This document shows positions 19,172 to 58,908 of a DNA stretch of 64,000 bases, piece by piece. Source of the DNA: Marsupella aquatica (lineage: Eukaryota > Plantae > Marchantiophyta); the NCBI GenBank assembly GCA_973895155.1, contig OZ316894.1, forward strand, positions 8,890,234 to 8,954,233. The letters run 5' to 3'. Each line of letters opens with the position of its first letter. Positions within the stretch are counted from its first letter, which is position 1. The notes beneath the pieces were generated by a model. That model ran no database searches. It was given only the letters and a program-made list of their open reading frames with translations, and was not told the origin of the DNA. The position numbers were made by a program, and so were the translations under genes.

Positions 19172-19518
19172 TATCATAAATAACAGTAGGGTACCAACAT
19201 TACAGGCAAGGGAAGGAGCGACAGCAACTCCGACCCGAGTCTTCACAGAGTGCACGAGAATTGCCAATATCAAAACCAACAGAAGGGTACCAACATTATA
19301 TGCAAGGGAAGGAGCAATAGCAAAGTGCACGAGAATTGCCAATATCATAACCAACAGAGTACCTACAGTATACGCACGGGATGCAGCAACAGCACAGTGC
19401 ACGAGAATTGTCAATATCATAAAAGACAACAGTAGGGTACCGACATTGCACGTAAGGGCGGAAGCGATAGCAACTCCTACCCAAGTCTACTTCACAGAGC
19501 GCACGAGAATTGCCAATT
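19172..19518. repeat. Degenerate tandem repeat (about 4 units, ~70-100 bp)
   Basis: Recurring GTGCACGAGAATTGCCAATATC and CAACAGTAGGGTACC blocks. Confidence 0.8.
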
Positions 19519-25090: not shown

Positions 25091-25378
25091 CTCGGGGGGT
25101 TGACTATAAGAAATCTTAGGAACCACGTGCGATCCAAAATATGTATTTTTGATAGAAATTAACTAAATTTTTAAAAAGCATAGGAGGCAAAAGAAGGTAT
25201 TATAAACTCATGTTTATAGAATATACTCTAATATATACTTTTTATAAAATAAAATAAGTTATTAATATTGAAAAATGGAGAATATTCTTAGAATATTGTC
25301 TTTATAAAATAGGTCTATTTATATTAGGCTAGGATCGCACGTGGTGCCCCAAAATATATACTTAGTTAACCCCTCGAG
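25091..25378. mobile_element. MITE, copy 1 (288 bp), TIR CTCGGGGGGTTGACTA, 8-bp TSD GGATGGGT
   Basis: TSD at 25083-25090 and 25379-25386. Right end reads TAGTTAACCCCTCGAG. Internal inverted motif CCACGTGCGATCC/GGATCGCACGTGG. Full-length homolog at 52511-52797. Confidence 0.93.
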
Positions 25379-34284: not shown

Positions 34285-34628
34285 TGTTGAGCATAGACGA
34301 CATTCGTAATGGCAAGCCCATGAATCATCCAACGCACAATAGTCGACACAGAGAGATATGTGGTTCACCTCCACATGAGGCTACGTCCACGGGAACACAC
34401 AAGAGCTTTACTGCACTCTAGGCCGACCGGCCATACCAAGCATCCACAGCACAAGCTCTCCCTATCTCTCAACTAGCTCCGTAACAATGAGCCTTTGTTC
34501 CACCAGGGTCTGGCATCAGCCCTGGCTATATGCACAACAACACTACCGCTAACCTTAGCTAGGTCCTAACCCGAGTTAGCCTAACTGTGGTTAGCACAAG
34601 AGTCACAAGACTAGAGTAATATCTAACA
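34285..34628 (-). repeat. 3' LTR of copia 1
   Basis: Near-identical to 39723-40066 and adjacent to the PPT. Confidence 0.96.
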
Positions 34629-34835
34629 AACTCCCCCTTGACTCTTGTCTTGGGGACTGGACTAAATGCTACCATATGGAATCCTCAGCGGGAAGTTCTA
34701 GACAATCACCAAACCAGGTCTCCCCCTAAAAACCACAAGGGTTAACTAAGGGTTAACTAGAACTAAGCCGTAGCCTAACAGGAATGAGTAATCCATATAC
34801 AAATAGTCACACATTGTTAAATAACTCTACTTGCA

Positions 34836-37800
34836 CTACAACTGCAAAACCTGCAAAATAGCACGGTGTCTTGAGAAACTCTCCAAAGGAATCACTTTGG
34901 TAAAGGCATCAGCGGGATTGAGCTTTCCATCAATCTTGACTAGCTCAAAAGTTTTATCAGACACTGCTTGCCTGATAAAATGGTACTTGATATCAATGTG
35001 CTTCACCCTGCTATCCATCACCTGGTTAGCAGCCAAGTGAAGAGCACTCTGACTATCACAGTTTAGAGTCATTTTTCCATGCTCTAAACCCATCTCCGCG
35101 ATCAACTTATCCAACCAAATTGCTTCCTTTGCTGCTTCTATTGCTGCAACATACTCTGCTTCTGTAGTAGACTGAGATATGCACTTCTGCAAGGTAGATT
35201 TCCAACTGATACATCCTCCTCCAAGAGTGTATACAAACCCAGTTGTAGATCTCCTTGTATCCAGACAGCCTCCATAGTCAGAATCTACATAGCCAACTAA
35301 TGTTCTATCTGATCTGTTATCAAATAGTAATCCATAGTCCTGTGTTCCCTTGAGATACCTGAGAATCCACTTCACAGCTTCCCAATGTATCTTCCCTGGA
35401 TTTGACATGAATCTGCTAACCTTGCCCATCGCTAGGGCCAAGTCAGGCCTAGTACAAGTCATCAAATACATCAGATTGCCTACTGCCTTCTCATAAGGAA
35501 TCTTAGCCATCAGACCTTTCTCCACAGCATCCGTATGAGAGAAAGCCGATGATAACTTGAAATGTGAAGCTAAAGGAATACTCACTGGCTTACAGTTCTC
35601 CATGTTGAATCGTGCAAGTACTTTCCTTGCATATTGGTCTTGACTCAAGCACAACTGTCCAATATCAGAGTTCCTAAAAATCTCCATCCCTAAGATCCTC
35701 TTGGCCTTACCAAGATCCTTCATCCTGAATTCAGCACTCAATTTCGTTTTGAGACTGTCAACCTCAAATTGATCTTTAGCCACAATTAGCATGTCATCCA
35801 CATAGATCACCAGAATGATGAAACCAAATACATCATTCTTGACTGATTTCGTATACACACAAGGATCATACACCATCCTTATAAAACCTTGAGCAAGCAT
35901 GAAATCATCAAACCGTTTGTTCCACTGTCTGGGAGATTGCTTCAATCCATACAAGGACTTGAGCAATCTGCAAACTAAGTTCTCTTGGCCCTTCTTCATA
36001 AAGCCTAGTGGCTGTCTCATGAAGATCATCTCTTCCAAGTTGCCATAACATCCATCTGATCCATCACCAGACCAAAAAACACAACAAGCTGACACAAGAT
36101 CCGAATTGTGGAATACTTAGCAACCGGTGAAAAGACCTCATTGTAATCCACTCCTTTCTCCTGAGTGAATCCCTTGGCAACAAGCCTTGCCTTGTAGATC
36201 TTGTCTCCACCCTCTGAAGGACTATCCTTCAACTTGTAAATCCACTTGCTGTCCACCACTTGCTGACCTCTTGGAAGCTCCACTAGCTCCCATGTCTTGT
36301 TGTCACTCAAAGATTGCAACTCCCTCTGCATTGCTGCATTCCACTCATGCTTCTGCTCTAAAGCACAAGCCTCACTGTACAAAGAAGGCTCTCCTTCTTC
36401 CAAGATCAAAGCCATGTCATCATCATCAGGTGCAATGTCAATATCATCTAGCTTAGATGAGTCTGCCCATTGACCATACCTGGTAGGAGCTCTAGTAGAA
36501 CGACTGGAAGTTCTTCTAGTAGATGACCCAGGCTGATCTGCTGCTGCTACTGGTTGAATGTGAGGTACCCCAGCAACAATCTGCTCCTCTTGTTCCATCA
36601 CAGGAACCAGCTCCAAGCCCGGAGCTTCTCCATCTCTCCTGTCATGAACTGCATCATGACTAATCTCCCCCTCAACCCCGTCCGGGATGGGAGATTTCCC
36701 CTTGTCAGTATGGGAGTCCTGAGAACTCTCCCCCTCCTTTGATGATCTGGATTCATTAAATGACACATCTCTACTGACAATTAGTTTACAGGTTACTAGA
36801 TCCCATAACTTATAACCCTTCACACCTTTCTGATAGCCAAGGAAAATGCACTTCTTTGACTTGGACTCCAGCTTGGATCGAAGCTGGGAAGGTGTAAGCA
36901 CATAAGCATCACATCCAAAAATCCTCAGATGTGAGTAATCTGCTGGACGCCCGTACCTCATTTCAAATGGCGTCTTGAATCCAATAGAACTGGATGGAGA
37001 AAAATTTACCAAATAAGCTGCAGTGTTGACAACTTCAGCCCAAAACTCATGTGATAAGCATGATTGACTCAACATAGTCCTCGAGCGGTCCAATAGTGTT
37101 TGGTTGAGTCTCTCAGAAACACCATTCTGCTGAGGAGTATAACTTGTTGTGAGATGGCGGGTAATCCCCTGCTCCTTACAATACGTTCCAAATTCCGCGG
37201 AACTATATTCACCGCCGTTATCCGATCGAAGATATCTCACCTTATTACCAGTCTGATTCTCAACTTGGGCTTTCCACTCCTTAAAAGTGGCAAAAACATC
37301 AGACTTATTGTGTAGAAAGTATATCCACACATACCTTGAGTAATCGTCTATGAACGTGACATAGTATAACCGTCCAGAATGTGAGGGAGTAGGGGCTGGA
37401 CCCCACACATCACTATATACATACTCAAGTACCTCCTTGCTGGTGTGAGTTCCAACTCCGAAGGGTTTCCTGTGCTGCTTCCCTAGCACACAGTGCTCAC
37501 AAAATTCCAACTTACAAGATTGCAAATTAGAAAGTAATCCTTTCTTCTGAAGAATAACCAAACCTTTTTCACTCATGTGGCCCAAACGGAAGTGCCACAG
37601 TCGGGCCGTCTCCTCATGAGATAAGGTTACATTGGCTTCATCACAAACTACACTGCCCTCCAAAACGTATAGATTGCTATGTCTCTTTCCCTTCAATACA
37701 ACTTTAGTACCAGTTGAAACCTGAAGGACACCATTAGCAGAGCTCCACTGATGGCCATTTGCTTCTAAAATTCCAAGTGAAATGAGATTTTTCATCATGC

Positions 37801-38899
37801 TGGGAATATGTCTCACATTTCTCAACGTTCTCACGACCCCATCAAACATCTAAAATCTTACAGATCCAAGTCCAACAACTTGACATGGGATTCCATTTCC
37901 CATCAACACTGACCCGTTGGAAACCGTGTAAGAACTGAAATAATCTCTTCTAGAGCAAATGTGAAAAGTACATGCACTATCTAGAATCCAGTCATCTTTA
38001 CCTGGATTTGACACTACATTGAGAGCATAACCTTGACATCACAATATGTCATCATCATCGAGTAAATCTACCTCATGTGAGCTCGATGCCGCATTAGCAG
38101 AGACAGTAGGGACCTTTACTCGATAATCCCTTTTCATGTGGCCAGGCTTGCCACAATTCCAGCATGCAAGAGGCTTCCTCTCTTGCGATTTCCCTCTGGA
38201 TTTAGATCTCCCTCGTGATGTAGATCTAAACCTGTTCTGTCCATTCGTGCGCTGCGCTGCTCTTCCCATATTCACATTGAGCGCAGTGCCAGAAGAAGAT
38301 GCTGTCTGTGATTGACCCAGCTTCTTCTGAGCATCATCAGACAATAATGAGCTCACCACCTCATTATACAAAATGGACTTCAGATCTCTGTACAAGAGAA
38401 CCTGTTTCAAGCCCTGATAAGACAACGGTAAGGAGCTTAGCAGAAGCAAGGCCTTATCCTCATCTTCAACTCCTTTTCCCAGGTTTGACAGATCCACCGC
38501 TAGACTGTCAAATTCATCCAGGTGATCCTGCATCTTGCTCCCTTCCTTGAGCCTGAGGCTCATCAAGAGAGACTTCTTGTAAAGTCGGTCTGACGCATCT
38601 TCCCGGTAGTACTTCTCTCTAAGAGCCTTGAACAGTGATGCGCAATCCGCATAATCATCCAGCTGCTTGATGATGTGCGGCTTGAGATATAGCATCACTG
38701 CATTGACAGCAATCACCTGTTCCTATCTCCACTGTCTCACAGAAATCTCCTCCTCTCCATCATACTGCTCTCGTGAAGAGAGCAGATGAGCTAAGCCCAT
38801 GGCCCGAAGGACACCCTTCACTTGCTTCTCCCAGAGCAAGTAATCAGTACGACCATCGTACTTCTCCACCTCAAACTTTACTCCTCCAAATCTAGCCAT
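34836..38899 (-). pseudogene. Copia gag-pol (UBN2 gag, zinc knuckle, protease, integrase, RT, RNase H), disrupted
   Basis: Motifs CWNCGKPGH, WILDSACTFH, LRSDNGGEY, PQQNGVSER, YKARLVAKG, YVDDML, YVDSDYG. Premature stops near 38723 and 37850, and a small frameshifting deletion in the MDV(KTAFL)xG motif near 36045. Confidence 0.95.
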
Positions 38900-39722
38900 C
38901 TCCCTCTTCTTCCCTACTACCGACAGCTCTGGTAGTAACACTGCTTCCTCCACTGCACGCCACACCGGTGATCGTACCGGTGTCACTAGTTCTTCCTCAA
39001 ACAGTAGCAACTCCTCCTCAGACTCACCGTCTGACCGTTGCGATCCTTAATCGCCGCTGTTTGAAACGAGAAAAATGAATGCCGCCGACGGAAAATGTTG
39101 CCGAATTGCACCGGCACAATCTGCAGCTCCAGCAGAGAAAAAAAATTCCGCCGCGTCGTCTTCACTCCACATCAAGTGCCAATCCCGGACTCAAAATGAC
39201 CGCCTCGCCGAGATCAAACAGTTGAGCCGTAGCACTTCGAGTTTCTTCCACCGAGTTGGACGTCACGAAGAGAAACCCGGTTCAAATGGAAACAAGCTCC
39301 ATAGCTTGTGAAAAAACCTGAACACCTCCTTCACTCGTCACGTCTCACTCGGTAATAACTCGGTAGCATATCAGCTACCGAAACGACCAGCTCGCTTCAA
39401 CCTTCAACTTGAGCTACAACATGCGACACCTCCCGCACCGCACAGCTCACACTATTGAAAAATGCGAATTCTGGTCTCTCCCCCGAAATCCCGTCGAACA
39501 CGAATAAACCCTGAACGACGCAGACTTTGATTCCTCCGCACCACGGATACCGATCAGCGAGTTCTAACCACCGTTAGAAAGCCCTCTCACTAACCTATCC
39601 GCACAGCCACATACATTCAAGTTTCATGCGATGAAACTCCGAATGCCCCATCGACAATGAACGCTGGAAAAAACCTATCACGAACAAACCTCGTCACCTC
39701 CCAGGCATGCTCTGATACCACT

Positions 39723-40066
39723 TGTTGAGCATAGACGACATTCGTAACGGCAAGCCCATGAATCATCCAACGCACAATAGTCGACACAGAGAGATACATG
39801 GTTCACCTCCACATGAGGCTACGTGCACGGGAACACACAAGAACTTTACTGCACTCTAGGCCGACCGGCCATACTAAGCATCCACAACACAAGCTCTCCC
39901 TATCTCTCAACTAGCTCCGTAACAATGAGCCTTTGTTTCACCAGGGTCTGGCATCAGCCCTAGCTATATGCACAACAACACTACCGCTAACCTTAGCTAG
40001 GTCCTAACCCGAGTTAGCCTAACTGTGGTTAGCACAAGAGTCACAAGACTAGAGCAATATCTAACA
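39723..40066 (-). repeat. 5' LTR of copia 1
   Basis: Followed on the minus strand by the tRNA-iMet PBS. Confidence 0.96.
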
Positions 40067-41314
40067 CCGATTTGAGACCGCCAATTTTCAGGGTCCACTC
40101 ATGAATTATTGTAGTCACACTAATTTTGTCATGACACTATTTCCATGCGCATGAAAGAGTGTTATTGTGGTCTCAAGAGTGGAAAAACAGAGTAAAAATA
40201 CTGTTTTGAAAGTACAAAAAAATATTGTTACTTTGGACTCAAAATCGCCCTGTTTTTACTAGCAATTTAAACAAGAGTGGAAAGAAACTATTCTGAAAAT
40301 CTGGCAAAAATTAGTGTTACTTGGACACACAATCACTTTACCAAAATTAGTATTAGTGACACTAATGTTTTAATGAAGCTAATTCTTGCATAACACTGGC
40401 TAATTATGGTGAATAGTGTAGCTTAGTATTGGCTCTAACTTTGTTCTAGGTACCAAAGAAAAGTGCAGAATTGTAAATTACAATTTGTAAAATAGTGATA
40501 TTTGAGGAGATAGGATTGAGTGTTGGAGGTGTCCAGAACATCCCAGCATTTTTTAGTAGGTAGCTTAAATGTCAAAGATCACAGCTCAAATAGAATTACT
40601 TTAGTCATCCAATAGTTGGGGTTCATCAAGATTAATATTTCAGTGTAGGTTTGTGACACCCCAAGATGTAGTGGCGCCCCTTTAATCATTCAATAAAATG
40701 TTGCTGTTTATCAAACTTAATATTTTGTAGATTTGTGACACCCCAAGCATGTAGTGGCACCCTGTGTAGCAGGGGTAAACCCGAGGGCCACTACTGGGGG
40801 AATGGGGAATTACTGTAATTTTTGGATTACTATGGAGTTAGTATATATTTTGGATTTTAGACTGTCTACAATCCAAGGGGCCTATCAAGTACTCAATGTC
40901 TTTGTGTGCTCATCAAGTACACAAGATGCTAGAGGGGGCCAGTTAATTAAGTCCTTTCCCTGTCTTCAATGACTTCTTCAGCTAAGACCACCATGTAAGC
41001 ACAAGCGAGCAAGCAGCCTTCCAGACACGCAGAAATGAAACAACGGGATGAAGATAAACATCTGTCAACACAACATAAAGAGAGGAAAGACGAAGAAGAA
41101 GTTGTGCTAATAGTTTCTTCTCTATACAAAATGGAATGCAATAGAGTACTGAGAAGAACTCCAGCAAATCGAGGGTGAATGGAAATCCTAGCAGCCATCC
41201 CTTCTCTGCTTTGATAACTTCCTCCAACTCCCTTGCACAAACTGTTTCGGTAGAACTTCCTCCCAACGACGTTCCGAATGCTGATCCCATATTAGGTGTT
41301 AATTAAAGGCGAGA

Positions 41315-41770
41315 GCAACTTTACCTACAAGGAGCCAACGATTCCAACCGAAAACGCATGTGATTCGCCTGTTCCAAACAAATCCTTCATGGCGGTTTTC
41401 AACTTTACCCAGAAGGAGCCGATACAAAAACCGGAGATAAAGCTCCAGAGACAACCCATGTAAATCCTCCGTTCCAAAAAACCCTCCTTGAGTATCGCAA
41501 CTTTACCCAGAAGGAGCGGAACAAAAGGGTCTGGCGTATGTAATTCCTCTGTTTCAAAAAAACTCCATTGCGGATCACAACGTTACCTGAAGCAGCCAAC
41601 ACAAAAAGCACAGACAAAGGTCCAGAGACGGTTGATGTGATTCCCCTGTTCCAATAAACCTTCATTGCATATCACCGAAGACGAGGCAACGACAAAAGCT
41701 GGAGAAAAACGGTCCAGAGATGACCCACCTAATTTCTCTGTTCCAAGGAACCTTGATTGCGGATCACGTT
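41315..41770. repeat. Degenerate minisatellite, ~80-100 bp units, about 5 copies
   Basis: Recurring caactttacc(c)agaaggagc, ccagagac and ctgttccaa blocks; one measured period is 97 bp. Confidence 0.7.
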
Positions 41771-41921
41771 GACTGATACAGAAGAAAACTGCACGCTTAT
41801 AAGTGGGCGACAGCTAGAACTTCCCATATAAAAAACCCATGCCACGAACGAGGGGGGGGGGGGGGGAGGGTATGTGTCTATGAGGACAGAAAAAGCTTTT
41901 TGCAACCTTACAGTGCAACAT

Positions 41922-42038
41922 CATTGGCTCGGTGGGGATCGAATTCGACACCTCACCAAAGTGACAGAAACTGCTTTTCAACGTTCCCCTGCAAACTCAT
42001 TGGCTCGGTGGGGATCAAATTCGACACCTCACCAAAGA
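41922..42038. repeat. 40-bp direct repeat pair with internal hairpin
   Basis: cattggctcggtggggatc(g/a)aattcgacacctcaccaaag occurs twice, about 36 bp apart. Confidence 0.85.
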
Positions 42039-42150
42039 ATGACAGCTTCCAACGAAAGCAGCCAAGATTTGCTCTGCTTCCCAGCCGTAGGCACAGTCCA
42101 CCATCGCCATGACTGAGGAGCTAGTCCAGGCTGGCCAACTGCCTTCAATG

Positions 42151-43668: not shown

Positions 43669-45407
43669 AATGATGCGGATGATGTCTCCGTGACTAGGTG
43701 AAATGGACTTGGAAATTCGCTATGCGGAACTTGTACATCTTAACTCGTCCATACAATGATGTGGATCAACAGCGTTCCGCTGTGCCGGACGGCGGAATCA
43801 CGAAGGACCCCATTCTGCAGGGGATACTCACATCGAGTAGATTTCATGTGTAATAACACTCTGGTTTCGCAATTATAATTTTCACACAGCCCAGTTGCAC
43901 ATACCTACGTTTAGGTGCAGCTGCTTTGGCTATACATGTACACTCGACACAGTTTATCTGGCTAGATATACATTTGCACATGATTCTCATTTTAAGTCAA
44001 TAAACGACAGTGGTATTTGCCGTTTCTACGTTCATTGTTCAAACAGATTTGCTTAGTTGGGAAGCTTTCCCGTTGCCGACTGGTTAAATTGCTTTTCAAC
44101 ATATGCCGGTCGTTTTGATAAAATCTTTGAGGCGAAAAACATGTGTCCGCATGAGGCAGAACCTGCGTTTGCTTACGTAGGATTGAAGATGTGTGACAAT
44201 TTGGGTGTAGTTGAAGAGTGCGAATAAAATTAGAGGGAAGAGCAGTGGTTAATACGGAAAAGTGTGGTCTTGAAAGTAATGGAGCGAAAATTTAAAGTAG
44301 ACGCGGTTGTGTGAATTGGAATCTGTGTGTGACGATCGTTCTCCAAGGGCAGAGCAATCCGAAAAGTAATATACAGGAAATTTGGATGAATTATATCGAT
44401 GTGTGACGGTCGTTCTCCCAAGGGTAGAGAAGAGCGAAATGTAACGTATATGGATGTGTGGATTGTATCATTGCGACAACTTTCTCCAAGAGCAGAGTGC
44501 CGAGCAGAGCAAAAGTGCCGTGTACAACATCGGCGAGTGGAATCTCGTACAGGTGTGTTGAGAAGATATTTGTCTGTTGAAGCTGGACCATTCAATACGC
44601 ACACCGTATAAAATAATGAGCTTATTGTTTTTGGCTATAGAAGAGAACTTTTTAAAGGAACTGAAACGTTGCTGTATCGAAGACCAACCATTTAATGCGA
44701 ATATGGTATAGAACAATGAGATCATTGTGTTTCTCTAAAAGAAAATTATTTTAATGGAACTGAAACCGCGAGACTACCGTGTCACACTGTCACCACTCGA
44801 ATAATTTGTACGTAAGCCGAAGGTGAACTGAGGAGGTCGTTCACCAATACCTGGTTAAAAGGATAGACATGGCCGTACAGGCCCCACTTTGCATCAGGAA
44901 ATTGCAGCACAAGTTACCAAAGAATATATTAGATTGAGGCTCTAACCTACTTCAGTTCTTTGCCAATTTATGATGCCTTTTCAACCTTGAAAGTTGTTCT
45001 CCTACTATCTAGACCTCTGTAAGCAACGAGTCGAGATCTGCGCTCAAGATTGTGTGCCTAGTTCCTCTGTCGCCAACAGTTGAAGTTTGTAGGCATATTC
45101 CATTCCTAGGAGTTGGGGCTTTAACATAGCCTCTGAACACGTTCTACCATTCAGCACAGCTCATCAGTGTCTGAACCTTTTGCTAGCGGGTAATGTAGAG
45201 CTGATATCTCAGTGCTGCCTAACTGCAAACTCCCATTAGCAACCTTGGTGCGATTGTGGGTGTCCCATTCGCCAGCAAATAGGATTGAGCTGCAATATTC
45301 TGACTGCCCACCTGTACACTTCCTTTAGCAACCTCGCATGCATCATACGACTGTCCCACCTTTCGCTGAAGTAGTCTGACTTGAAAAACTTCCTTTAGCA
45401 CCACCTT

Positions 45408-45547
45408 GTACGACGAGAAACGTCAGTAACCTCCACACCAAAGACTCAGAAAGACTAGTCCCCAGTAGGCCATTATCTTCCTTTAGGAAAGTGTAGGACG
45501 AGAAACGTTAGTAACCTCCACACTTGAGAGTCAGAAAAACTAGTCCC
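45408..45547. repeat. Direct repeat pair (~55 bp)
   Basis: gacgagaaacgt(c/t)agtaacctccacac...tcagaaa.actagtccc occurs twice. Confidence 0.75.
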
Positions 45548-46335: not shown

Positions 46336-48876
46336 ATAATACAAGGAGGAGTCGCACAATGACACCTGACCTTTAGAAACATCTATGACTACAAAAAATG
46401 TCACCTAGAGGTTCCCCACCAAAATGACATCTAAAAGTAAATCAGATTTTCTTAAAAACTCACTAAAATATAAGACACTCGACTGTTCACTTAGGCAAAT
46501 GAACAGGTAACCTGTGAGGGACATGCCCTCTTTATTGAGGGTGTGCAAGGGTGGTTCTTATTCTACCTTGTAAAACATGACTGAGAAATTTAATAACGCA
46601 AAAGTATGTTAGGGTGACTGTTTGATAATGAATCCTAGGAAACACATATGGGAGTGTTTTAGCAAGCTTAGATCACTGGCTGTTCCTACATTCTATTCTG
46701 ACAAGCACCAATGAGAGTGTTCTAGTAAACTTACATCACGTGCTTCATGAACTTTTGTCCTCAAGTTTCCATTGTTGCCTATTGGATTATACAATCATTG
46801 TGATTGTGACCTTATGTCTAATCAATCTAATAGCTGTACGTCCAACTTCCTTTATAATTGCACAACATATTATTCTGTGACCATGAAAGATACGAATAGT
46901 GATTCTGTCCGAGCTGAGTACTGGGTGACAGTAACTCGTTGATAGTCAACTCCCCATAGCTTATACAATGATTATGGCTATCTACAAAAGAATAAGAAAC
47001 CACAAGCTCACATTGTGGTTTGATAGTTTTGTATCAAGTGTTGTTGCACAGATCACACCGGGGATCACACCAAGTTCTGGCATCTTCCTCCATCATTTTT
47101 GGAAACTTCTGTTGCTATGATTGGGATGGCCTTTTGCAATGCAAAAATGCCTCCTCAGGTGCATGCTCGTTCATATAAAGCCAATCTCAACCAACCAGCT
47201 AGCAAAAGAAAATTTCCTGAGTTTATTTTGTAGAATAGATCTAGCTCCCGTCAAAAGCAAAGCAGTTGGTGTGGGTTCCTTTGGAGCCCACCTAAGGGTA
47301 ATAATTTTTTTTGTTTGCCTTGAAACCAAAGGAAGTTGGACCCATGAAGAGATAGTCATCTTTGGAGCATGCAACACTGTAGGGTGGCCCACAAACCAGG
47401 AGTGATTAAAGAACCCTGCTAGGATGGTTAAATCAGGGTCCCACAAGTGCCTAACCAAGGGCTGATGAGATACCTAGAATTTAGGGTTGATGGCTTTGAG
47501 TTGATTTCCATTGATGCCTTGCCACACCTGGCCCTTGTTCCCTCCTGGTCCAATACTTTTCACTATCTACTCAGGACCCCGGTTTGTCACAATGGGGGTG
47601 GGGTGAATGGAAGTCAAGGCTTACTCAGGCTCTCTTTCCATTCACTCCTAACCCATTGTGGCAAAGAGTGACACACAGGAAGTGTATTGCGCTACTAACA
47701 AAAGATTTCTTGTTGGTGCTCCACAAACTGGGTAAGGGGTGGCAAATGGGAGAAGTTTGAAGTTGCTCTGACCCAACAGTTTAAGACTTACCAAGACCAT
47801 GTCCATGAGAACACCCTATATAGTTTATAGTCTACTGTAAGTGACAGTGATGGTCAATGAAACAGACCCAACAGTCAATTGGATGATTCTCCTTGAAACT
47901 AGAAATCAACTACAGACCGTCCACCTTACTTTATATTGTTGAACTCGGTAGAAAATCAAAACTGTACATTATCTTCCCAACACATATCCGATAAATAATA
48001 GACTTTAAAACCAATGCCTCATCGCGTCAATTGGTTGGACATGGCTTTTAATCTGATGACTTTCCTTAAATCTAGGGAGATTTAACAGGGTTGGACATGA
48101 CTTTCAATCTGATGGTTATTCTTAAATCTAGGGAGATCTAAAAGTAAAAATGAGTTTAGGAAAATTGAAATAAGGAATAGTCTTAGTATCTTCACCATCT
48201 GGCTAAAAAGGAATGGCCTTTAGAATTACCCTGGTGGCATGCTCCTTTGCCTCAAGGGCCCGCTCAAGGGGATGGGTTACCTGCACTTCAAGCCCTTTGT
48301 GATTTTCAAAGTTTGTTTCTTGTGTTTTTTAAACTAGCCTCTAAGAGTGTCTTATGGTCATGGCATATGATCGATAATCTCTATGGCAACAAGTTATGGA
48401 CTATCAAATGAATGGATTTGGTATTAAGTCATGTCAGAGTACTGCCATAAGCAAGGTCTTATGGATTTGACTTTTTGGACGTCTGATCCTTGCACATGTA
48501 TATAGGTAGCCCATAATATTTTTGTCCCAACCATAAATCCATTTTATGTCCTTGGCTCTACCTCACTTAATACCCTATTTTGACTTTCTATTCCATACTT
48601 TTCTCTGTTAGTAACCTTTACTACTAAGTTAAGGTCCATCAATTGTTGAGGCTTGAGACCCCTAGTATTCTATAACTTTTTCTGCCAGTAACCTTAACTA
48701 CTAAGTTAGAACTACTAAGTTAAGCTCCATCTTGACTACTAAATTAAGGTCCATTCTGTCAATGAGTTTTAAAAACCCCACTGACAAGAAGGTCTAAGGA
48801 GCAAGCATTGAGAACTGCTGAGAAGCAAGGCTGCAATCTCCACAAGCAACTCCTGAAGAAGTGCCGTGGAACGATG

Positions 48877-49304: not shown

Positions 49305-49647
49305 TGTTAGGTATTTACTCAAGGTCTAGGGTTACGACATGTAACCGTACTTAGACTAACCGTAGTCGGAGACGTGGTTAGATTAACTAGGATGCACACT
49401 ATATGCCAAGAAGTGTTTGCTTGGATAAGTGGAACTTAGGCTCATTGCTATGGAGCCACTTGAGAGATGAGGAGAGCTTACACTGTGGAGACTTGGTATG
49501 GCCGACGGGCTTAGAGTTTAGTAAAGCTCTCTTGTGTGTTCCCGTGGACGTAGCCTCGAGGAGGTGAACCACATATCTCTTGTGTTGACTACTTGCGTGT
49601 TGGATGTGTCATGTGCTTACCATTACGAGTATCGTCTATGCTCAACA
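49305..49647 (+). repeat. 5' LTR of copia 2
   Basis: TGTTAG...CAACA followed by CT + TGGTATCAGAGC. Confidence 0.95.
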
Positions 49648-50289
49648 CTTGGTATCAGAGCATGTCTGGGAGGTGATGTGTGTTCGTGATGGGATTTTGT
49701 GACGGTTTTATCCAACGTTGAGTGTCGGTGGATTTTCCAGAGTTCCATCACATGGAACTTGGAGTTTATGGGCTCAACGGATAGATCGGGGCAAGGGCGT
49801 TCTAACGGTCTAAATAAATCGTTGAACGGAGCTCGTGGTGTGGAGAGATCTAAATTTTTGTCATTCTGGATTTTGTGAAGAAAGTCGGCAACATTCGTGT
49901 TCGACGGTTTTTTGGAGGAGGAACCAGAGTTTGTTTACTCGACGGTGTGAGCTCTACGGTGAAGGAGACGTCACATACTATAGCTCCGCTTGTAGATCGG
50001 GACGAGCTGGTCGTTTTGGTAGCTGATTTGTTACCAAGTGAGCACCGTGTGTGACGGGATGAGAAAAAGAAACTTCTGATTTTCTGACCGGCTATGGAGT
50101 CTTCTTTTGCCTGAGCGGGGTTTCTCGTCGTTGCGCTCAACTCGGAGGGAGAGACGTGAAGTACTTGGGCTGAACGGAGAGATCACGAAGAGGCGATCGT
50201 TTTGAGTCCAAGATTGACGGTTTTGCCCACGGGAGGAAGGAGTTCTGAGTTTTTGCCACTGATTGACCGGTGCGGGTGCGCAAATCTTT

Positions 50290-52240
50290 CCACCCACCGA
50301 CATCGGTTTCTAATTCCTCACCATAATCCGACTTTTACAAGGTGCAAGCTCTTTTTGTTTGATTTCCACAAGCATTTTTGGATTTCTTACGGGCCAATTT
50401 TTTGTTCGAAAATACTCTCCCTCTCTCTCTCTAATAAGTAAAGCCAAAGATAAGCTACCAGCTTCCATCATTAGACTCCTTATACGTACTACAAGGGGGC
50501 AACAAGAATCATACGGTATAAGTGAAAAACACTACACAAACAGTATTTTCATTATAAATACTTATCACTGCACACATTATGGAGCCCACTAAGGGCACTA
50601 GATATTCCAATCCAAAAGACTCAGCTTCCCGCTACATTGCCATGGCCCATAGAGCCATTGATTTAATCACCTTATATCTAGACCGTCTATGGATCAGCCA
50701 CCTAAAGCTGTTGCCCTAAAACAGGGCCTAAGGTAGCGGCGCTGCCAGGAGCAACCCAACAGCCAACTTGGCTCTACTATCACTTGACATTGGGCACATC
50801 CAAGAAAGCCATGAGGATCTAGCAAAGCAGAACACATGACACTGACATGACAGAGTGAGCATTGGACACCCTGAGATAAGCAGCTCGTGAGAAGCACACC
50901 TCGTAAGGAGTGGGAGCTACAGCAGACATTCGTGGACAGCTGAGATTCCTCAGCAATACGACACTCGAACCAACATGGGATCAAATCAGGCTCAGGTTTT
51001 ATGCAGTACATTCACTGTTCTTGATATTTATGTTTCCGTCTATTCATGTTGTTACAAGCAATGCTGAAAGCTGGAGAATGTAATGTTTGAATAAAGCTGA
51101 TGTGACTACTCTATCTCCGGCCCATGTCTCCCCGCAACCGTCTAGACAATGCTGCAGAAACATGGGACCAGATATTATGTTTCCTAAGACTAATGTCGAT
51201 CCAGTGGCGGGGGCTGAACGAAGACACTGGATAAGTGTATGGATATAGTCCGTCCATTCCCGGGAATAGATTACGGCCTATGCTTGATGCTGTGGACACA
51301 ACATTGAAGTAACGCCGTCAACCAGCATACACCCAGTATGGTGCTAAGCAGTGCTGCGTGGTAATATAAAACTGTCTATAGGTTCTATACTTAATAAAAA
51401 CATAGTCCAACAGGAGTCGACATGATCAACATGGATGGGAAATATATTGATGATAAACAATAGCATTTGGTTTCTACTAAATCGAGCTGTCTCTGACATG
51501 CATATGGCGCATCTGTACCCTTAATGTATGAAACAAAACAGTGGATGCTATGTACGTTATGATGAACTATGAATCAATGTGCAGCGTTTAATTGACAATA
51601 CGACCTGAAATATCTCAGGATGTGATACATCTATGTATGTATAAAACCAATCTCTCTAGAGACCTCCATCGCACATTGGAAAGAAATTTCTTTGGGGCCC
51701 TTGCCGGTGACGAGTGTGAATTCCACTTCTCTGGTGGTTATTTCCTTTGTATTGTTGGGGGCATTTTTTTGGTTTTTTAGGGGGTATTTGGCACCCTCAA
51801 CCCCCCCTCGTCGAATCGACCCCCCCCGCACGCGGCCGCCCCTACCCTGAAACGTGCATCTTTCCCGGCAGCCACAACCGCTGCCTGTAGCTCCGACAGG
51901 CCCGCGCCCTCATTTTTCCCCCTCCGGCTGGCCTTGGGTCCCCGCATACACCCCGCCCTAGCCCATTTGTTTCTTTTTGCCTTTGGCCGGCTGCCTCCAA
52001 CGCCGACTGCCGCTCCCGCCGGCCCCGACACTCCCCGGTTGCATCACGGCTCGGCCATACGCGTACCCCAGCCCCGACCTTGTATGCCAACCGGTACCCT
52101 GCCCCGCATACGCCTGATTTAATAAAGGGGCTTTAAACCCTTTTTAGCCCCTACTTTTATTCATTTTCCCCGATTTTTGATTGGTAGCCACATCCCGGGA
52201 CCCGCCGCCCTCCACTTTAATTGCTTGGACAGGGGGAACG
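50290..52240. mobile_element. Unclassified ~2-kb insertion in the 5' leader of copia 2
   Basis: Absent from the equivalent leader of copia 1. Contains a GC-rich block (51780-52230) and decayed minus-strand ORF-like pieces. Boundaries are approximate; no TIR or TSD was resolved. Confidence 0.55.
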
Positions 52241-52450
52241 GCATTTTTTGGAGGAGTTTTGAGTTTTGAGTTTTGAGTTTTTTTGCATTCTCACATGAGT
52301 GATTTGGAGGAGATTTTTGAAGAAGTGGATCTTGAAGCACAAGGATCACCATGACGGTTTGAGGAGGAAAGAGAGGAGCAAGAGGAAGCGCATGTGACAC
52401 CGGTATGATCATCGGTGCAGCGAGTAGAGGGGGTTGTGAAGGAAAAAGAG

Positions 52451-54064
52451 ATGGCATCCAGGTTTGGAGGTGTCAAGTTTGAGGTGAAAAAGTATGATGG
52501 GCGTACGGACCTCGGGGGGTTGACTATCAAAAATCTTAGGAACCATGTGCGATCCAAAATAGGTATTTTTGCTAAAAATCAACTAAATTTTTTTAAAGCG
52601 TAGGAGGCAAAAGAAGGTATTATAAACTTATGTTTATAGAATATTCTCTAATATATACCTTTTATAAAGTAAAATAGGTTATTAATATTGAAAATGAAGA
52701 ATATTTTTGGAATATTTTCTTTATAAAATAGGTCTATTTATATTATGCTAGGATCGCATGTGGTACCCCAAAATATACACTTAGTTAACCCCCCGAGGTA
52801 CGGACTACTTGCTCTGGGAGAAGCAAGTGAAAGGAGTTCTTTGTGCTATGGGCCTAGATCATCTTCTCTCTACACGAGAGATGTACAATGATAAGCAGGA
52901 GATTCCACTTAAGAGGTGGAGGCAAGAACAAGTAATTGTAGTGAATGCGGTGATGCTTTATCTGAAGCCGCATGTCATCAAGAAATTGGATGACTACGCG
53001 GATTGTGCATCTCTATTCAAAGCCCTAAGGGAGAAGTACTATCGGGAGGATGCATCAGACCGATTGTACAAGAAGTCTCTCTTGATGAGCCTTAGGCTCA
53101 AAGAGGGGAACAAGCTTCATGATCACTTGGATGAATTTGACAGTCTAGCTGTTGATTTGTCTAATCTTGGTAAGGGCGTTGAAGAAGAGGACAAGGCCTT
53201 GCTTCTTCTCAGCTCCTTACCCTCATCTTATCAGGGTTTGAAGCATGTTCTCTTATATAGAGACCTGAAGTCTATTTCATATGATGAGGTGGTAAGCTCT
53301 TTGCTGTCAGATGATGCACAGAAGAAGTTGGGTCAAGCCCAGACAACCTCGTCATCTGGTGTTGCCTTGAATGTGAATCGTGGAAGGTCACAACGGCGTC
53401 TCGAGTAGCGCACGAATGGCAAGGGATGAAGTAAATCTAGGATGAGATTTGCTTCAAGGGGGAAGTCCCAGGAGAGAAAGCCAGTAGTTTGCTAAAAGTG
53501 TCACAAGGTTGGTCACGTTAAGAGGGATTGTAAGGGTAAGGCAGCTGAATCTTTATCAGCCAATGTGACTAGTGCTGATGGAGAAGTTGATTTACTCAAT
53601 GATGAGTATGTTTTATGAAGTCAAGAGTATGCCCTATGCACATCATCTAGGAGAGAAAATGATGTATGGATTCTTGATTGTGCTTGCTCCTTTCATATTT
53701 GTTACATTCGCGAGTATTTCAATTCTTATTCTGTGTCAAACGGTTCAGTTTTGATGGGAAATGATCACTCCTATCGAGTTGAGAGTATTGGGTCTATAAA
53801 GATTCAAATGTTTGATGACATTGTGCGCACAGTGTCCGGAGTCAGGTTTGTACCTGGCATGCATAAGAATTTGATTTCACTCGGTGTGTTGGATACAAAT
53901 GGTCATCAATGGCGAGTAATTAATGGTGAACTTCAAGTCATGTCGGGAGAGACAATGATTTTGAAGGGGAGCAGACATAAGAATTTGTATGTGCTGTAGG
54001 GCAATACAGTATGTGGAGAGGCCAATGTAACCAAGTCTCACGAGGAAATGACTCAACTATGGCA
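52451..54064 (+). pseudogene. Copia 2 gag-protease-pre-integrase, interrupted by a MITE and stop codons
   Basis: MASRFGGVKFEVKKYDGRTD[MITE]YLLWEKQ..., WILDCACSFH, KNLISLG, ending at TQLW(H). Confidence 0.9.
52511..52797. mobile_element. MITE, copy 2 (287 bp), 8-bp TSD GTACGGAC, inserted in copia gag
   Basis: TSD at 52503-52510 and 52798-52805. Removing the MITE and one TSD restores YDGRTDYLLWEKQ as in copia 1. Confidence 0.95.
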
Positions 54065-54524
54065 CTCGGGGGTCTCACTATATGGAGGACCCCCCCATCA
54101 CCTGCGATGTTTTCATGCCTAGACCCCCATACTTATTAAGTTGAAATTTTTTTTCCTCCCCCTTTCTTTCTTCTAAGAGTCTAAAATCCAATTTATATTG
54201 CCCCTATAATTTGTGAAGTAAAGTGTCACATATCAATAAAAAATGCCTAGAAAGAAAAGATAAGTCTATGCCAGTACCTTGTGAAGTTGTATGTCAAACG
54301 TGGCACGCCCTGCAACAGTTCTTGCACCTTTTTCGACCTCAAACTTTCATCATTTCAATGCATCATTTATATTGTGTACCTAAAGGTCATCCCAATATTG
54401 TGTACATAAGTGGGATGGCCTTTAAGGTCACAACATGAATAATCCATTCCATCAACAATCAATTTGAAACCAATCACATACTCCATCCATACTCCATTGA
54501 AAACTTCTGCTGAGAGATGTAACA

Positions 54525-54610
54525 TGTGACGGAGGGGAATTGAACCCCTAATTGAGAAAGGATCTCAAGTTGCCAATCCGTCACCCCCTATCCTATCCCA
54601 CTACACCCAC
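54525..54610 (-). ncRNA. tRNA-like structure (D-arm-deficient core 54584-54525) with upstream A-box-like sequence
   Basis: GTGACGG/CCGTCAC 7-bp acceptor stem, TTGAGA/TCTCAA stem, AGGGG-TTCAATT-CCCCT T-arm (B-box GGTTCAATTCC), discriminator A. Expression is unknown. Confidence 0.5.
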
Positions 54611-54666
54611 TAATATAAACAAAACAAAATATATATACTCTCAAAAAGTAAACAATAGCATAACAT

Positions 54667-56972
54667 TCATACCATTGTTTGAAGATACTGATCCAATGCA
54701 CGTCTATCTATTGGATCCAAGACATAGATACGATCCATAACCCCTTCTTTCATGGTTAAGCTAACACTAGCAATGACCATTTCAATATCCATCCATTTCA
54801 AATCAGTGGTATCATATCTGAATTCACTTTTGCTCTGACCAATAGGACTATACCAATTTAACAACAGTTCACAAATGCTACCTGATTGCCCTGCAAGTGG
54901 AGTGGGCCTATCCATTAAATCAATTGGTGTCCAACAATTGCCCCACCTACTACCATACTTTTGTCTCATTTGGACAATCCGACCCAACCAAAAATATTTA
55001 TTACCTGCTGAGATTGCCTCCACCGCAGCCTTATTCTTTCCTCCCTTTTTTTTCCAAATCTAGTACTTGGAGCAGGATTATCATTAGACTCAAATGCAAT
55101 TGCACAATCAGTGCCAACATCAACAAAACATGAGTTAGGATTGGCTTCTTGCACTTTTTTCTTGCCAGTACTATAGTATAGCACTTGTTTCACCCTTGTC
55201 AGCCTATCTTTTGACAAATGTGGATTGCCTACCAGCTGGCTTACCAGAGTGGATTTGTAAATCACCTTGCCTTCATAAGTAACAGTAGGCACTACCTTGG
55301 TACAATTTTGCACATTAGTTACAGCATGGACAACTGATCCAAACACATGCCGAACTTCATGGCCTAATGTCTCAAGCTCATCTGTGGGGTCTACATCAAA
55401 CTGTTTATCATCTCTGTGTACATCATCTGAATGCATGTCAGGAATAACAATGGGATCTGGTTCTGTTAACCATGCATCTATTCTATTCAGATCATCCTCA
55501 GGATCTTCCAATTCATGAAATTCTCCAGTTGGGCGAGGGCCTATGTCTGGTGGTTGGTGCTCTACTTGCTCCTCAGAATCATTGCAAACAACTGCTTCCT
55601 TCAGAACCACCTCTAGTGGCCAGGTCTCACTTTCCACAACCCAAGGACATGTCCACCATCTCTTTCTAGCTGCGGGTAAGGAACTTCGTGGAGACATCTG
55701 CAATTGATGCATAAGATCCTTAGCAGCAACAAAACCTTCTTTAAGGGCTGCAACCACTAATTCATTAGTCTCAATGAAAGAATAGTCAAGTATATTTGGT
55801 GCTTCCTCCCCTTCCCCTATAGGATGAATCTTCCCCCATACATGATCTTGCTTCTTATGTGAACGACCTATCTTCAAGCCTTCTGGTCCATATTCCAGGG
55901 CAGCAAGCCGGTTCAGTCCAACAGCACTATCCAACAGAGAGCTAAAATCATAATTTCGCTCATGGCCACTCATGCCTCCTACCTTGCTGAAGAAAATCTC
56001 ACAACAATCCGAACCTAACAAGTGAAAGGGAACACCTAGATGTGGGAACTTATCTTGAAAGGCACAAATTAACAGCACAATGAAATGACATGACATGTTA
56101 ACATCATGAAAGGCCTGAATAGACATCATGTCTTTCTTAGTGTGTGCTGCAAAGTTCCCACCCACTGAATGGTCACCAAACCTCAACCACAATCTCCACA
56201 AACGTAGAAAGAACAAAACCTTGGATGCTAACACAATACGGGACCTCAAGTCACGAATTGGAGAAAAGAAAATATCTAAGTAATCTGCACAAATCTCCAA
56301 GTACAACTGAGTTCCTAAACTTCGTTCATGTCGTACATCTCTCCTCTCATACATATCTTTCAGACATTGTTGCACTCTTCTTGCTGCTATTCGTTGTGGA
56401 CCTGCCCAATTCTACCGGTCAGTCCTATTCACATCATCCCAAGCCATGCCATGTTCATGAATTGGATAATGATTATAGACATTAGCTACATAAGATAAAG
56501 ATGCATGTTGATCTCCTAGCACCAGTAAAGAAGACACTCTGTCTAAGGGGTTTATCATCTTTTTCCCATTATGAGGTTGGTGTTGGTCACCAAAGCTATA
56601 CAAATCCCCATTTGGTAGAATTGAAACAGAGTAAGCCCACCCTTCCCACCCAACTCCGTACCTTGGGTATGATCCATTCTGCCCTCTGTAATCTTCCAGC
56701 ATCAACTTTCGGCGATGTGCATCACCATCACTAGCATGTCCAAGCAAAGGGCCTACCATAGCTCTACAATATTCAGCCTTTAACTGGACCCAATGCTCTC
56801 GTACCCAAGACGTTGTGAACTTATTACAAGTTGGAAGTGCACACACAGCCAATTTAGGTAAGGACTCATGAAGAGGATTCACAATCATAACTCGAGCATA
56901 CATGCACTTGGGGCATTGTTCAAATGTACTTACAATTTTATCATACCCCTTATCACCTTCACCAACTAGAAT
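54667..56972 (-). pseudogene. P-like transposase, catalytic core and C-terminus
   Basis: One frame runs from ILVGEGDKGYDKIV through ARVMIVNPLH, GHASDGD, DQHQPHNGKKMINPL, DR*NWAG (premature TAG at 56412-56414), GTQLYLEICADYLDIF and LGSDCCEIFFSKVGGMSG. A frameshift near 55050 leads into the 54667-55023 ORF. Confidence 0.78.
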
Positions 56973-57683
56973 TTGGGGGGAACACCACCTTATGAAAATC
57001 TAACTTGTAGTGAATGTGATTCTATAACACTAGAAGATGATTTTCGTGGACGGGTGCACAGGGAAGCGGAAGTAGTAGTCCACAGAGGGAGCCGAACCAC
57101 TGCTGGTGGTATACGATTGGATTATTTGACCAACCCAGAGTTAAGAGATCAAGTGCACAAGCTGAACTCTGTGCGACGAAAAGAGCGTTGGTTGTTAGCT
57201 TTGCAGGCTCAGAAAGTATGTGCCTTGAGCACCAGAAAAAGAAAACTAGAGGAGTTGTTAGGAGTTGCAACAGACAGGAAGGATTTGAGATTGTTTCTTA
57301 GGAGTATTTTGAATGGACACAGGAATGGTGCATTTGGTGGTAAGGAGGTTTTGTGGGATTTCTTGAAGGATGTAGCTCGCAATTTAGGCAGGAAGCCAAA
57401 AGGTAATCGTTACAGTAATAGGACTCGAGCTATTGCTCACGCTATGTTCCAATTTGGGGGCCGTCAAGTTGCTCATTGTTTTGCACGAAACTTGACAGCC
57501 CCTAGCCTTGTGACCCTAAAACGTGATAGAGCAAAACTCACACCTTTTCTAACTGGGTTACGGAAGGAAACCTTTCAGGAGATTGCTAGAGTGTTGTCTG
57601 CTGCAAAGCACTCATTGGGCATTGAGGGGGATGTGCCTGTTATCTTTGCTGAGGATGAAACAAGGATCAAAGAACGGGTTTGG
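56973..57683 (+). pseudogene. P-like transposase N-terminal part (inverted), up to the first catalytic Asp
   Basis: CSEC motif, coiled region, GNRYS...NLTAPSLVTLKR helical motif, then VIFAEDETRIKERVW. Confidence 0.72.
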
Positions 57684-57720
57684 AAGGTGAAGGTGATGAG
57701 GGGTATGATAAAATTGTAAG

Positions 57721-58388
57721 GAAGTCTCATGTATTTGATGACTTGCACTAGACCTGATCTTGCCATGGCTATGGGCAAGGTGAGCAGATACATGTCGAAT
57801 CTAGGGGAGGTACACTGGGAAGTAGTGAAGTGGATTATCAGGTACTTGAAGAGTACCGTGGATCATGGTCGTTTATTTGATGCAAATGCAAAGAATGCAA
57901 GATCATTGATTGACTATGTAGATTCTGACTATGGACAAGATCTGGACCGAAAGAGATCAACAACAGGGTACGTATTCACACTTGGTGGTGGATGCATAAG
58001 TTGGAGGTCTACTTTGCAGAAGTGTATTGCTCAGTCTACTACAAAAGCAGAGTATGTTGCAGCAGCAGAAGCAGCGAAGGAAGCCATTTGGTTGGATAGA
58101 CTTATCACTGAAATGAGATTGCCACAGGGGAATATGAAGCTCCATTGTGATAGTCAAAGTGCGCTCCACCTTGCTGTGAACCAGGTGATGGACAATAGAG
58201 TGAAGCACATAGACGTCAGATATCATTTTATCAGGCAAACTATGTCTGATAATTTGTTTGAGCTAGTCAAGATAGAAGGTAAACTCAACCCAGCTGACGC
58301 ATTTACCAAAGTGATTCATTCAAAAAGTTTCTCTAGACATCGTGACATGCTGCAGGTTTTGCAATTGCGTCACAAGGGTTTTTCTTAA
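57721..58388 (+). pseudogene. Copia 2 RT C-terminus / RNase H remnant
   Basis: GSLMYLMTCTRPDL, YVDSDYG, STTKAEY, KHIDVRYHF, NPADAFTK. Confidence 0.93.
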
Positions 58389-58566
58389 CATTCGCTGTAA
58401 TTACTGATATATGCTATTCTTCACTCCTAGTAATAGGCTACGGCTTAGTTCTGGTTTGCTCTAGTTAGAGAGGGGAAACCATGTTGATTTTTGTCCAGAA
58501 CTTTCTGCGAGGAATCATATAGGATAGCAGTATTACCCTCCCCTAGACCAGAGTCAAAGGGGAGAT

Positions 58567-58908
58567 TGCTAGGTATTTACTCAAGGTCTAGAGTTACGAC
58601 ATGTAACCGTACTTAGACTAACCGTGATCGGAGACGTGGTTAGGTTAACTAGGATGCACACTATATGCCAAACGGTGTTTGCTTGGATAAGTGGAACTTA
58701 GGCTCATTGTTATGGAGCCACTTGAGAGATGAGGAGAACTTACACTGTGGAGATTTGGTATGACCGACGAGCTTAGAGTTCAGTAAAGCTCTCTTGTGTG
58801 TTCCCGTGGACGTAACCTCGAGGCGGTGAACCACGTATCTCTTGTGTCGACTACTTGCGTGTTGGATGTGTCATGTGCTTACATTACGAGTGTTGTCTAT
58901 GCTCAACA
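58567..58908 (+). repeat. 3' LTR of copia 2
   Basis: Matches 49305-49647 and is followed by TSD AATTA. Confidence 0.95.

Follow-up and report, generated by a model that had tools for sequence, protein, structure and literature searches.

A dead, rearranged copy of a probable P-type DNA transposon family in the liverwort Marsupella aquatica

Structure of the 54065-57720 copy

A 64,000-nt stretch of the genome of the liverwort Marsupella aquatica (assembly GCA_973895155.1, contig OZ316894.1, positions 8,890,234 to 8,954,233; hereafter the window) carries, at positions 54065-57720, transposase sequence lying inside a long terminal repeat (LTR) retrotransposon, copia 2. In the original prediction, the locus had been read as a P-like transposase element bounded by a 20-nt terminus; the motifs and the terminus were found as named, but the terminus is present at one end only. 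With a probability of roughly 0.88, we conclude that the locus is one dead and rearranged copy of a P-type cut-and-paste DNA transposon that is present in multiple copies. Its features are given below, where P0361 is a 1529-residue Calypogeia protein compared by tblastn, and the contigs, which come from related organisms, are those of the four sequencing runs that were compared. Parts of the stretch match six runs in four studies; no RNA run is among those listed, which speaks neither for nor against expression.

49305-58908, + strand: host copia 2, with a 5-bp duplication AATTA, a Kimura two-parameter (K2P) distance of 0.062 between its LTRs, and Pfam matches to gag and the Pol beta-barrel
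54065-54084, - strand: right (3′) terminal inverted repeat, CTCGGGGGTCTCACTATATG as read on the + strand, just after the copia 2 codons ...QLW; the copia alignment stops at 54066
54085-54666, - strand: 3′ non-coding, subterminal region, found in multi-copy contigs of all four runs, with no long open reading frame (ORF)
54667-55045, - strand: transposase C-terminal domain behind a 1-nt frameshift, matching P0361 residues 1419-1528; a BAH-like or chromo-barrel fold is predicted in a relative
55046-56975, - strand: transposase core with the second catalytic Asp (D2, in SDGD), DxxH, the helical insertion domain and the catalytic Glu (in SDCCE), plus an acidic linker
56976-57676, + strand: inverted 5′ gene fragment with a CxxC motif, a coiled coil, an HTH (helix-turn-helix) and the first catalytic Asp (D1; AEDET, codon 57654-57656), matching P0361 residues 502-731
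57677-57720, + strand: repair patch, consisting of a short piece of the missing segment and a 35-bp copy (97%) of 56929-56963, which forms an inverted repeat and abuts the copia reverse transcriptase (RT); contig loose ends lie at 56974 and 57719

In the ORF translations, the transposase motifs were distributed over both strands: EDETRIK lies in a + strand frame (56970-57719), whereas SDGD, DQHQPHNGKK..NPLD and DRTDR-stop-N lie in a - strand frame (56412-56999), followed by SDCCEIFFSKVGG in the - strand frame 54966-56411 and the frameshifted C-terminus in the - strand frame 54667-55059. Of P0361, residues 502-731 are matched by the + strand part of the copy and residues 757-1528 by its - strand part, while residues 1-501 (the first ~500 codons) and 732-756 (~25 codons at the inversion) have no counterpart in the copy. 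Only the right end of the element remains, the 5′ part of the gene is inverted, and neither a left end nor a target duplication of this element was found within the window. At least 13 contigs of run X2 carry on with copia sequence at position 54065, in keeping with an insertion there.

Further lesions were mapped in the coding sequence, in which the second catalytic Asp is encoded at 56727-56729 and the catalytic Glu at 55998-56000. They comprise a premature stop at 56412-56414, a 9-bp deletion at 56774, and a DxxH motif that reads HQPH, with His in place of the nearly invariant Asp (137 of 142 rows of the alignment described below). In the host element, the integrase and most of the RT are gone at the insertion, and 2109 nt of copia 1, the other copia element of the window, have no counterpart. 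The decay noted originally is real and exceeds what had been stated, as it includes the 9-bp deletion, the HQPH change, and the loss of ~25 internal and the first ~500 codons; ~2.1 kb of copia sequence has been lost as well.

Fold and sequence affiliation of the transposase

The protein folded for structural comparison was P0008, a relative that is 48% identical in the core (AlphaFold2; mean predicted local distance difference test score 69.8, about 90 in the core). Its model matched the Drosophila P transposase (PDB 6p5a) with a Foldseek E value of 2.8e-10, compared with 1.3e-3 for RAG1 and 2.4e-3 for Hermes. The VIA comparison gave Z 23.1 with 6p5a over 348 residues (root-mean-square deviation, rmsd, 3.4), against 10.2 for Transib, 9.0 for RAG1 and 8.5 for Hermes, and among 48,161 chains the P transposase ranked first, with the next at Z 8.5. 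Likewise, 6p5a came first (E 3.5e-4) when a 64-sequence family profile was searched against the PDB, and the alignment covers the HTH and pairs aeDET with AFDEM (D230), DyiHngKKliN with DTPHLIKLVRN, and drqn..aqRlas with AKQKVKLATQLFS. In the atlas, a Riccia homolog scored 0.95 to P-transposase clusters and all 10 of its best family matches fell in one clan; a Basidiomycota cluster stood on top of the list (0.97), ahead of the P clusters. These results support the proposed divergent P-superfamily lineage, P being the best match in both the structure and the PDB profile search, far above hAT, Transib and RAG in the former.

Conservation was counted over 142 rows covering the core. D1 is present in all 115 rows that cover it, D2 in 140 of 142 and the Glu in 139 of 142; within DxxH, which is aligned with DTPH of 6p5a, the Asp is kept in 137 rows and the His in all 142. 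Besides D230, the catalytic residues of the P transposase are D303 and E531.

Outside the core, the accessory domains differ from those of canonical P proteins. No Pfam match to THAP was obtained in 28 + 20 family proteins, including the full-length protein of the metagenome locus L001, and a loose C2CH pattern was seen in 2 of 59 N-termini. In the model of the L001 N-terminus, residues 1-84 resemble ubiquitin-like folds, with matches to many chains at Z values of up to 7.2, and two CxxC..H..H (C2H2-type) fingers come next in the sequence; the model gave no Foldseek match at E<=1e-3, and THAP was absent from its fold list, which alone is not decisive. The C-terminal ~150 residues of P0008 (~913-1063) resembled 10 BAH-bearing chains (Z 5.8-6.8) and three MRG/Eaf3 chromo barrels (Z 5.9-6.5), which are middling values; Z scores below 8 may stem from an arrangement found in many proteins, and similarity in fold does not establish a function. 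The atlas gave no informative match for this part (best score 0.76). It is possible, though doubtful, that this predicted BAH-like domain sets target choice. Extra domains were also observed in the distant relatives P0080, P0087 and P0108, namely SAP (E 6e-10), C1_2 (E 5e-6) and a weak ubiquitin-hydrolase match, so domain capture looks common in the clade.

Termini, relatives and distribution of the family

The 20-nt terminus was found twice in the window, at 54065 (+ strand) and at 6815-6834 (- strand), against 0.01 matches expected from shuffles, and two MITEs (miniature inverted-repeat transposable elements) carry similar ends.

6806-6834, - strand: end of a non-coding repeat of high copy number that bears the same 20-nt terminus; the repeat body resumes at ~5086-5311, past a nested, unrelated 1.5-kb repeat
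25091-25378: second MITE copy, with the 8-bp duplication GGATGGGT; K2P 0.090 to the first copy
52511-52797: MITE with CTCGGGGG ends and the 8-bp duplication GTACGGAC, within the copia 2 gag

The two MITEs are 91% identical and both have perfect 8-bp duplications (GGATGGGT and GTACGGAC), which confirms the earlier claim of related MITEs with target-site duplications (TSDs) of 8 bp. Since the MITE left terminus shares 16 of 20 nt with that of the element and nothing internal aligns, they represent a sister family; derivation from the element by deletion was ruled out on the same ground.

For the terminus at 6834, no partner end or duplication was found within the window. It was rejected as the partner of the 54065 end, as it belongs to a small interrupted non-coding repeat, and also as the left end of the family with a GC-rich promoter, because 5312-6805 is a separate nested repeat. 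Joints from 5311 to 6815 occur in contigs of three of the four runs, and in 13 contigs of run X1 the loose end behind 5311 bears the terminus. Comparison of 5060-5311 with the subterminal region of the element scored 53, the shuffle maximum being 48, which is too weak for a claim. The nested repeat itself (5312-6805) is a GC-rich, very high-copy, non-coding 1.5-kb sequence whose ends read AGTGGTGGA.. and ..TCCGCGACT, with GGAGG on either side; it has many different flanks in all four runs. It may be a solo LTR, or else a DNA element that makes a 5-bp duplication and whose ends, AGT..ACT, are unusual.

A complete element was found in a relative. L001 is a 6096-bp element with CTCGGGGGGGTCACTCCTCATAAAAA inverted ends (28 of 30 positions) of the same type as the terminus at 54065, a perfect 8-bp duplication GTTTTCAT and an open frame of 1520 codons without an intron, so that here CTCGGG ends and an 8-bp duplication do flank an intact frame, as had been looked for. 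Paired CCCGGGGGGAGCACT ends, without a duplication, are present in L004. Single right ends of similar type, chosen by eye and without a chance control, lie downstream of the gene in 11 of the 28 loci listed, some of them near-duplicates. All 17 aligned termini start with CTC or CCC, although they were selected by motif except those of L001, L004 and the MITEs, which were defined by pairing or duplication. Right ends of the CTCGGG or CCCGGG kind were also observed behind two remoter relatives, which share 32-37% identity with P0008 (L022:7315 and L046:5389), so the C(T/C)CGGG end type may extend past the plant clade. The CTCGGG termini, originally described as unusual, are thus present here and yet not peculiar to the window family, similar C(T/C)CGGG ends occurring across the clade.

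The contigs show that other copies of the family are in better condition. The window stop at 56412-56414 is a Gln codon in contigs of all four runs; among the matches listed, one extra base at the frameshift site (55045-55048) was found in three of the four, and in two (a 3525-nt contig of X5 and a contig of X6) position 57676 or 57674 is joined to 56974 on opposite strands. These opposite-strand joins mean that the halves of the gene normally stand in the usual order in this family and that the inversion is private to the window copy. At the X5 join, ~183 nt separate the halves while 75 nt would suffice for the missing codons, and an intron is therefore likely at that point. The 3525-nt X5 contig is 2-3% diverged from the window, and its depth is 114.8, compared with about 3-6 in other X5 contigs, which suggests tens of near-identical copies, although depth is not a copy number. 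The expectation that intact copies may exist is thereby supported.

Homologs were numerous. The read-through core of the window copy matched 53 proteins (best 74%), and a 28-sequence profile run against 1.84 billion representatives retrieved 4608 at E<=1e-3 and 744 at E<=1e-30. Among the 120 matches listed out of 164, the named members are Riccia sorocarpa, R. fluitans, Calypogeia fissa, the fern Adiantum nelumboides and the coral Desmophyllum pertusum, and no seed plant appears. Trees were built with FastTree from 142 of 276 proteins (those covering the core) and with IQ-TREE from 50 of these, chosen by hand, both drawn at the midpoint. A long branch (0.43; 100/100) separates the window copy, Riccia, Calypogeia and Adiantum from the coral; since the first tree was used to assign the other rows to the plant group, the grouping is tested by the named members only. 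Compared with the window copy, the core is 55-59% identical in Riccia, 48% in Calypogeia, 43% in the fern and 35% in the coral, the corresponding host-gene identities being 60-64%, 87% and 55-63% for Riccia, Calypogeia and the fern. The window copy groups with Riccia rather than with the protein from Calypogeia. These data agree better with old retention, liverworts having several lineages, than with recent transfer.

Alternative explanations, local history and known systems

The clade combines the predicted P-type RNase H and insertion fold, the D-D-E triad, the D(2)H motif, terminal inverted repeats and the 8-bp TSD, and it is placed outside the THAP-bearing clade. We regard the window family as likely belonging to an old, THAP-less branch of the P superfamily kept in non-seed land plants. 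Several results weigh against this reading. Identity to the P transposase is 14-15%, and the structure model is that of the relative P0008 and not of the window copy. A Pfam P family was matched in none of 28 family proteins and weakly in one of 20 others (PF12017, E 0.0063), and one of seven window frames gave a weak match to PF21789 (E 0.13), none reaching a Pfam cut-off; this failure likely explains why the clade goes unannotated. The 28-sequence profile had no PDB match, a single-sequence PDB search was likewise empty, and designed helical repeats come close behind P in the 64-sequence profile search (E 1.2e-3). Both ends with a duplication were seen in only one (L001) of the 33 metagenome loci checked for paired ends out of 80, many of which are too short, and no copy of the exact window family with both ends was seen, no genome-wide search for one having been made. 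The trees had no canonical P outgroup. Among the eight GTP-contact positions of the P transposase (taken from the available text of PMC7776569), D528 is conserved in 126 of 142 rows, D444 appears as D or E in 87 of 142, and S409 is partly kept (52 of 142, Ala in the window), while K385, K400, V401, F443 and N447 are mostly replaced. In the P element, GTP contacts the terminal G of the ends (available text of PMC7776569), and the terminal C and G are kept at the ends of the window clade. From these sequences, GTP might still serve the clade transposase as a cofactor, with odds somewhat below even.

Some of these points would also suit a separate superfamily-level sister of P, with the same fold and its own C[T/C]CGGG ends, but no THAP and no GTP requirement. 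The low identity, the missed Pfam cut-off and the replacement of five of eight GTP contacts point in this direction, as do the clade's own motifs (AEDET, GHASDGD and GSDxCE), its 744 representatives at E<=1e-30, and a D1-D2 spacing of 119 residues in P0004 compared with 73 in the D. buzzatii P element (available text of PMC3698922). However, the clade retains the P motif order and DxxH, which can be aligned by sequence together with the HTH; it has the same 8-bp duplication, and its atlas position is beside Pfam-labelled P clusters; we consider this sister status unlikely, and its difference from membership in P is largely a matter of naming. Far less plausible is an affiliation with hAT, Transib/RAG, Kolobok or another 8-bp-duplication element whose P-like motifs arose by convergence. 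Plant hAT elements typically also make 8-bp duplications, and both Hermes and Transib turn up in the fold lists, but P scores Z 23.1 where Hermes reaches 8.5 and Transib 10.2, which speaks against such an assignment, and no hAT Pfam family was matched in the 28 + 20 family proteins or the window frames. Kolobok appears in no fold list, with no direct comparison made, and its TTAA target does not fit.

As to origin, acquisition of the plant lineage by horizontal transfer from animals, fungi or protists would accord with the patchy named record (Riccia, Calypogeia and Adiantum; those 120 matches include no seed plant), with the coral protein in the clade and with the Basidiomycota cluster heading the atlas list; transfer between liverworts is allowed by the grouping of the window copy with Riccia rather than Calypogeia. 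Yet all named plant members lie on one side of the long branch, and core identity declines with host distance, which does not fit a recent transfer. We judge such an acquisition improbable. The horizontal transfer raised in the original prediction is not favoured with animals as the source, since the named land-plant members form one deep clade, although a transfer may have preceded the liverwort-fern split.

The history of the window copy itself can be outlined from its position and joints. Because the element lies in copia 2, it was inserted later than copia 2, in line with the earlier proposal that it moved after the insertion of a copia element with LTRs ~6% diverged (K2P 0.062). After it had transposed into copia 2, a later break would have been repaired by template switching, by which 0.7 kb was inverted, 35 bp were copied, and the left arm and 2.1 kb of copia were lost; this is the likeliest cause of the rearrangement. 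An assembly or amplification chimera would produce the same inversion and deletions, fold-back joins with a short inverted duplication being a recognised artefact type, and no contig among the matches listed bridges the window's own junctions. Against such an artefact, the 35-bp copies differ at one base, the patch contains three separate joins, the locus as a whole lies between the matching 5-bp duplications of copia 2, and the copy bears several independent lesions. A chimera is thus rather improbable, and the family is real either way.

By analogy with P, a working element of this clade would follow a cut-and-paste route. Its sequence features are one long frame (about 1500 codons when intact), short C(T/C)CGGG inverted ends, 8-bp duplications and same-ended MITEs. 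The transposase is predicted to have an RNase H core with a D-D-E triad interrupted by a P-type helical insertion domain, and would recognise the ends through its HTH and C2H2-type zinc fingers instead of THAP. It would then bring the two ends together, excise the element and join it to the target strands at points 8 bp apart, as described for P in the available text of PMC7776569.

The remaining features of the window were as follows. Copia 1 (34284-40066, - strand) has nearly intact pol frames, an LTR distance of 0.030 and 72-74% identity to copia 2, and is surrounded by a long inverted repeat (33790-33973 and 40744-40931; 74% over 189 nt), likely the ends of a DNA element that copia 1 entered. 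In its 5′ region (50216-52380), copia 2 has about 2 kb that are absent from copia 1, contain no long ORF and carry a 16-nt direct repeat (50238/52252), which we read as an insertion. At 24800-25497, inverted arms of 89 nt (79%) lie around the MITE at 25091, and likely mark a further small element into which the MITE inserted. Several short tandem arrays, their units 56-100 nt long, are located at 19171-19517, 41461-42045, 45407-45547 and 48033-48144. A single-frame nucleotide pyrophosphatase/phosphodiesterase gene (PF01663) at 1581-3161 is 87% identical to a Calypogeia fissa protein, the next named plant being at 69%, which sets the host close to the leafy liverworts.

If the P assignment is true, land-plant DNA transposons gain one more superfamily, and the apparent rarity of P outside animals is partly a detection gap, considering the 4608 and 744 representatives at E<=1e-3 and E<=1e-30 and the 0 of 48 proteins at the Pfam P cut-off. 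A wider proposal, which we put forward only tentatively, is that the clade is an unrecorded eukaryote-wide P-like branch with C(T/C)CGGG ends, missed by Pfam, inherited in land plants since before the liverwort-fern split and still multiplying in liverworts, in which zinc fingers replace THAP and a fused BAH-like reader steers insertion. The intact plant frames (L001 and Calypogeia P0361) make it testable whether GTP is ancestral to all P-type enzymes and whether the BAH-like domain directs insertion. A native, recently mobile element would also be a possible tagging tool in bryophytes; the window copy itself is dead and its value is that of a pointer.

The ends of the window clade begin C(T/C)CGGG, whereas canonical P ends begin 5′-CA. 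Compared with the Drosophila melanogaster P transposase (6p5a and 6pe2; available text of PMC7776569), the clade shares a predicted HTH and RNase H core, the latter split by a helical insertion, the D..D..E residues together with DxxH, short inverted ends, the 8-bp duplication, and the 5′ C and 3′ G at the ends. It differs in length (about 1500 vs 751 residues), in having no THAP found, in the predicted ubiquitin-like domain, two C2H2-type fingers and BAH-like C-terminal domain, in most GTP-contact positions, and in the intronless frame of L001. The P element cleaves its ends with a 17-nt stagger (same source). With the P superfamily at large (Galileo, 1360/Hoppel and THAP9, the protist P elements of PMC3698922, and fungal P), it has in common DDE with D(2)H, MITE partners and the 8-bp duplication, but it falls below the Pfam models by which P elements are detected. 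Hermes (hAT), Transib and RAG1 share the RNase H core with a helical insertion domain, but at Z 8-10 vs 23 for P and rmsd 5-9, and with no sequence-profile match.

P elements are listed for protozoans and animals in the available part of PMC3698922, and for fungi only in Pucciniales and Allomyces in that of PMC5751038. In the literature searched, which left Repbase and Dfam outside, no P transposase was described for land plants (liverworts, mosses or ferns); PMC12477816 and PMC12730594 do not mention P elements, and PMC12477314 does so only in a reference. Novelty is qualified by P-MITE (PMC3964958), which holds P-type MITEs in 'lower plants', classed by ends and duplications alone; this group includes algae, Physcomitrella and Selaginella, the bearing species being unspecified in the available text. 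P is also named among the MITE superfamilies of angiosperms (available text of PMC10004981). The seven plant DNA-transposon superfamilies given in the available part of PMC6839031 do not include P. The same paper describes GingerRoot of Selaginella, whose integrase-type transposase is unrelated to the one studied here, and which sets a precedent for a transposon type overlooked until non-seed genomes were considered.

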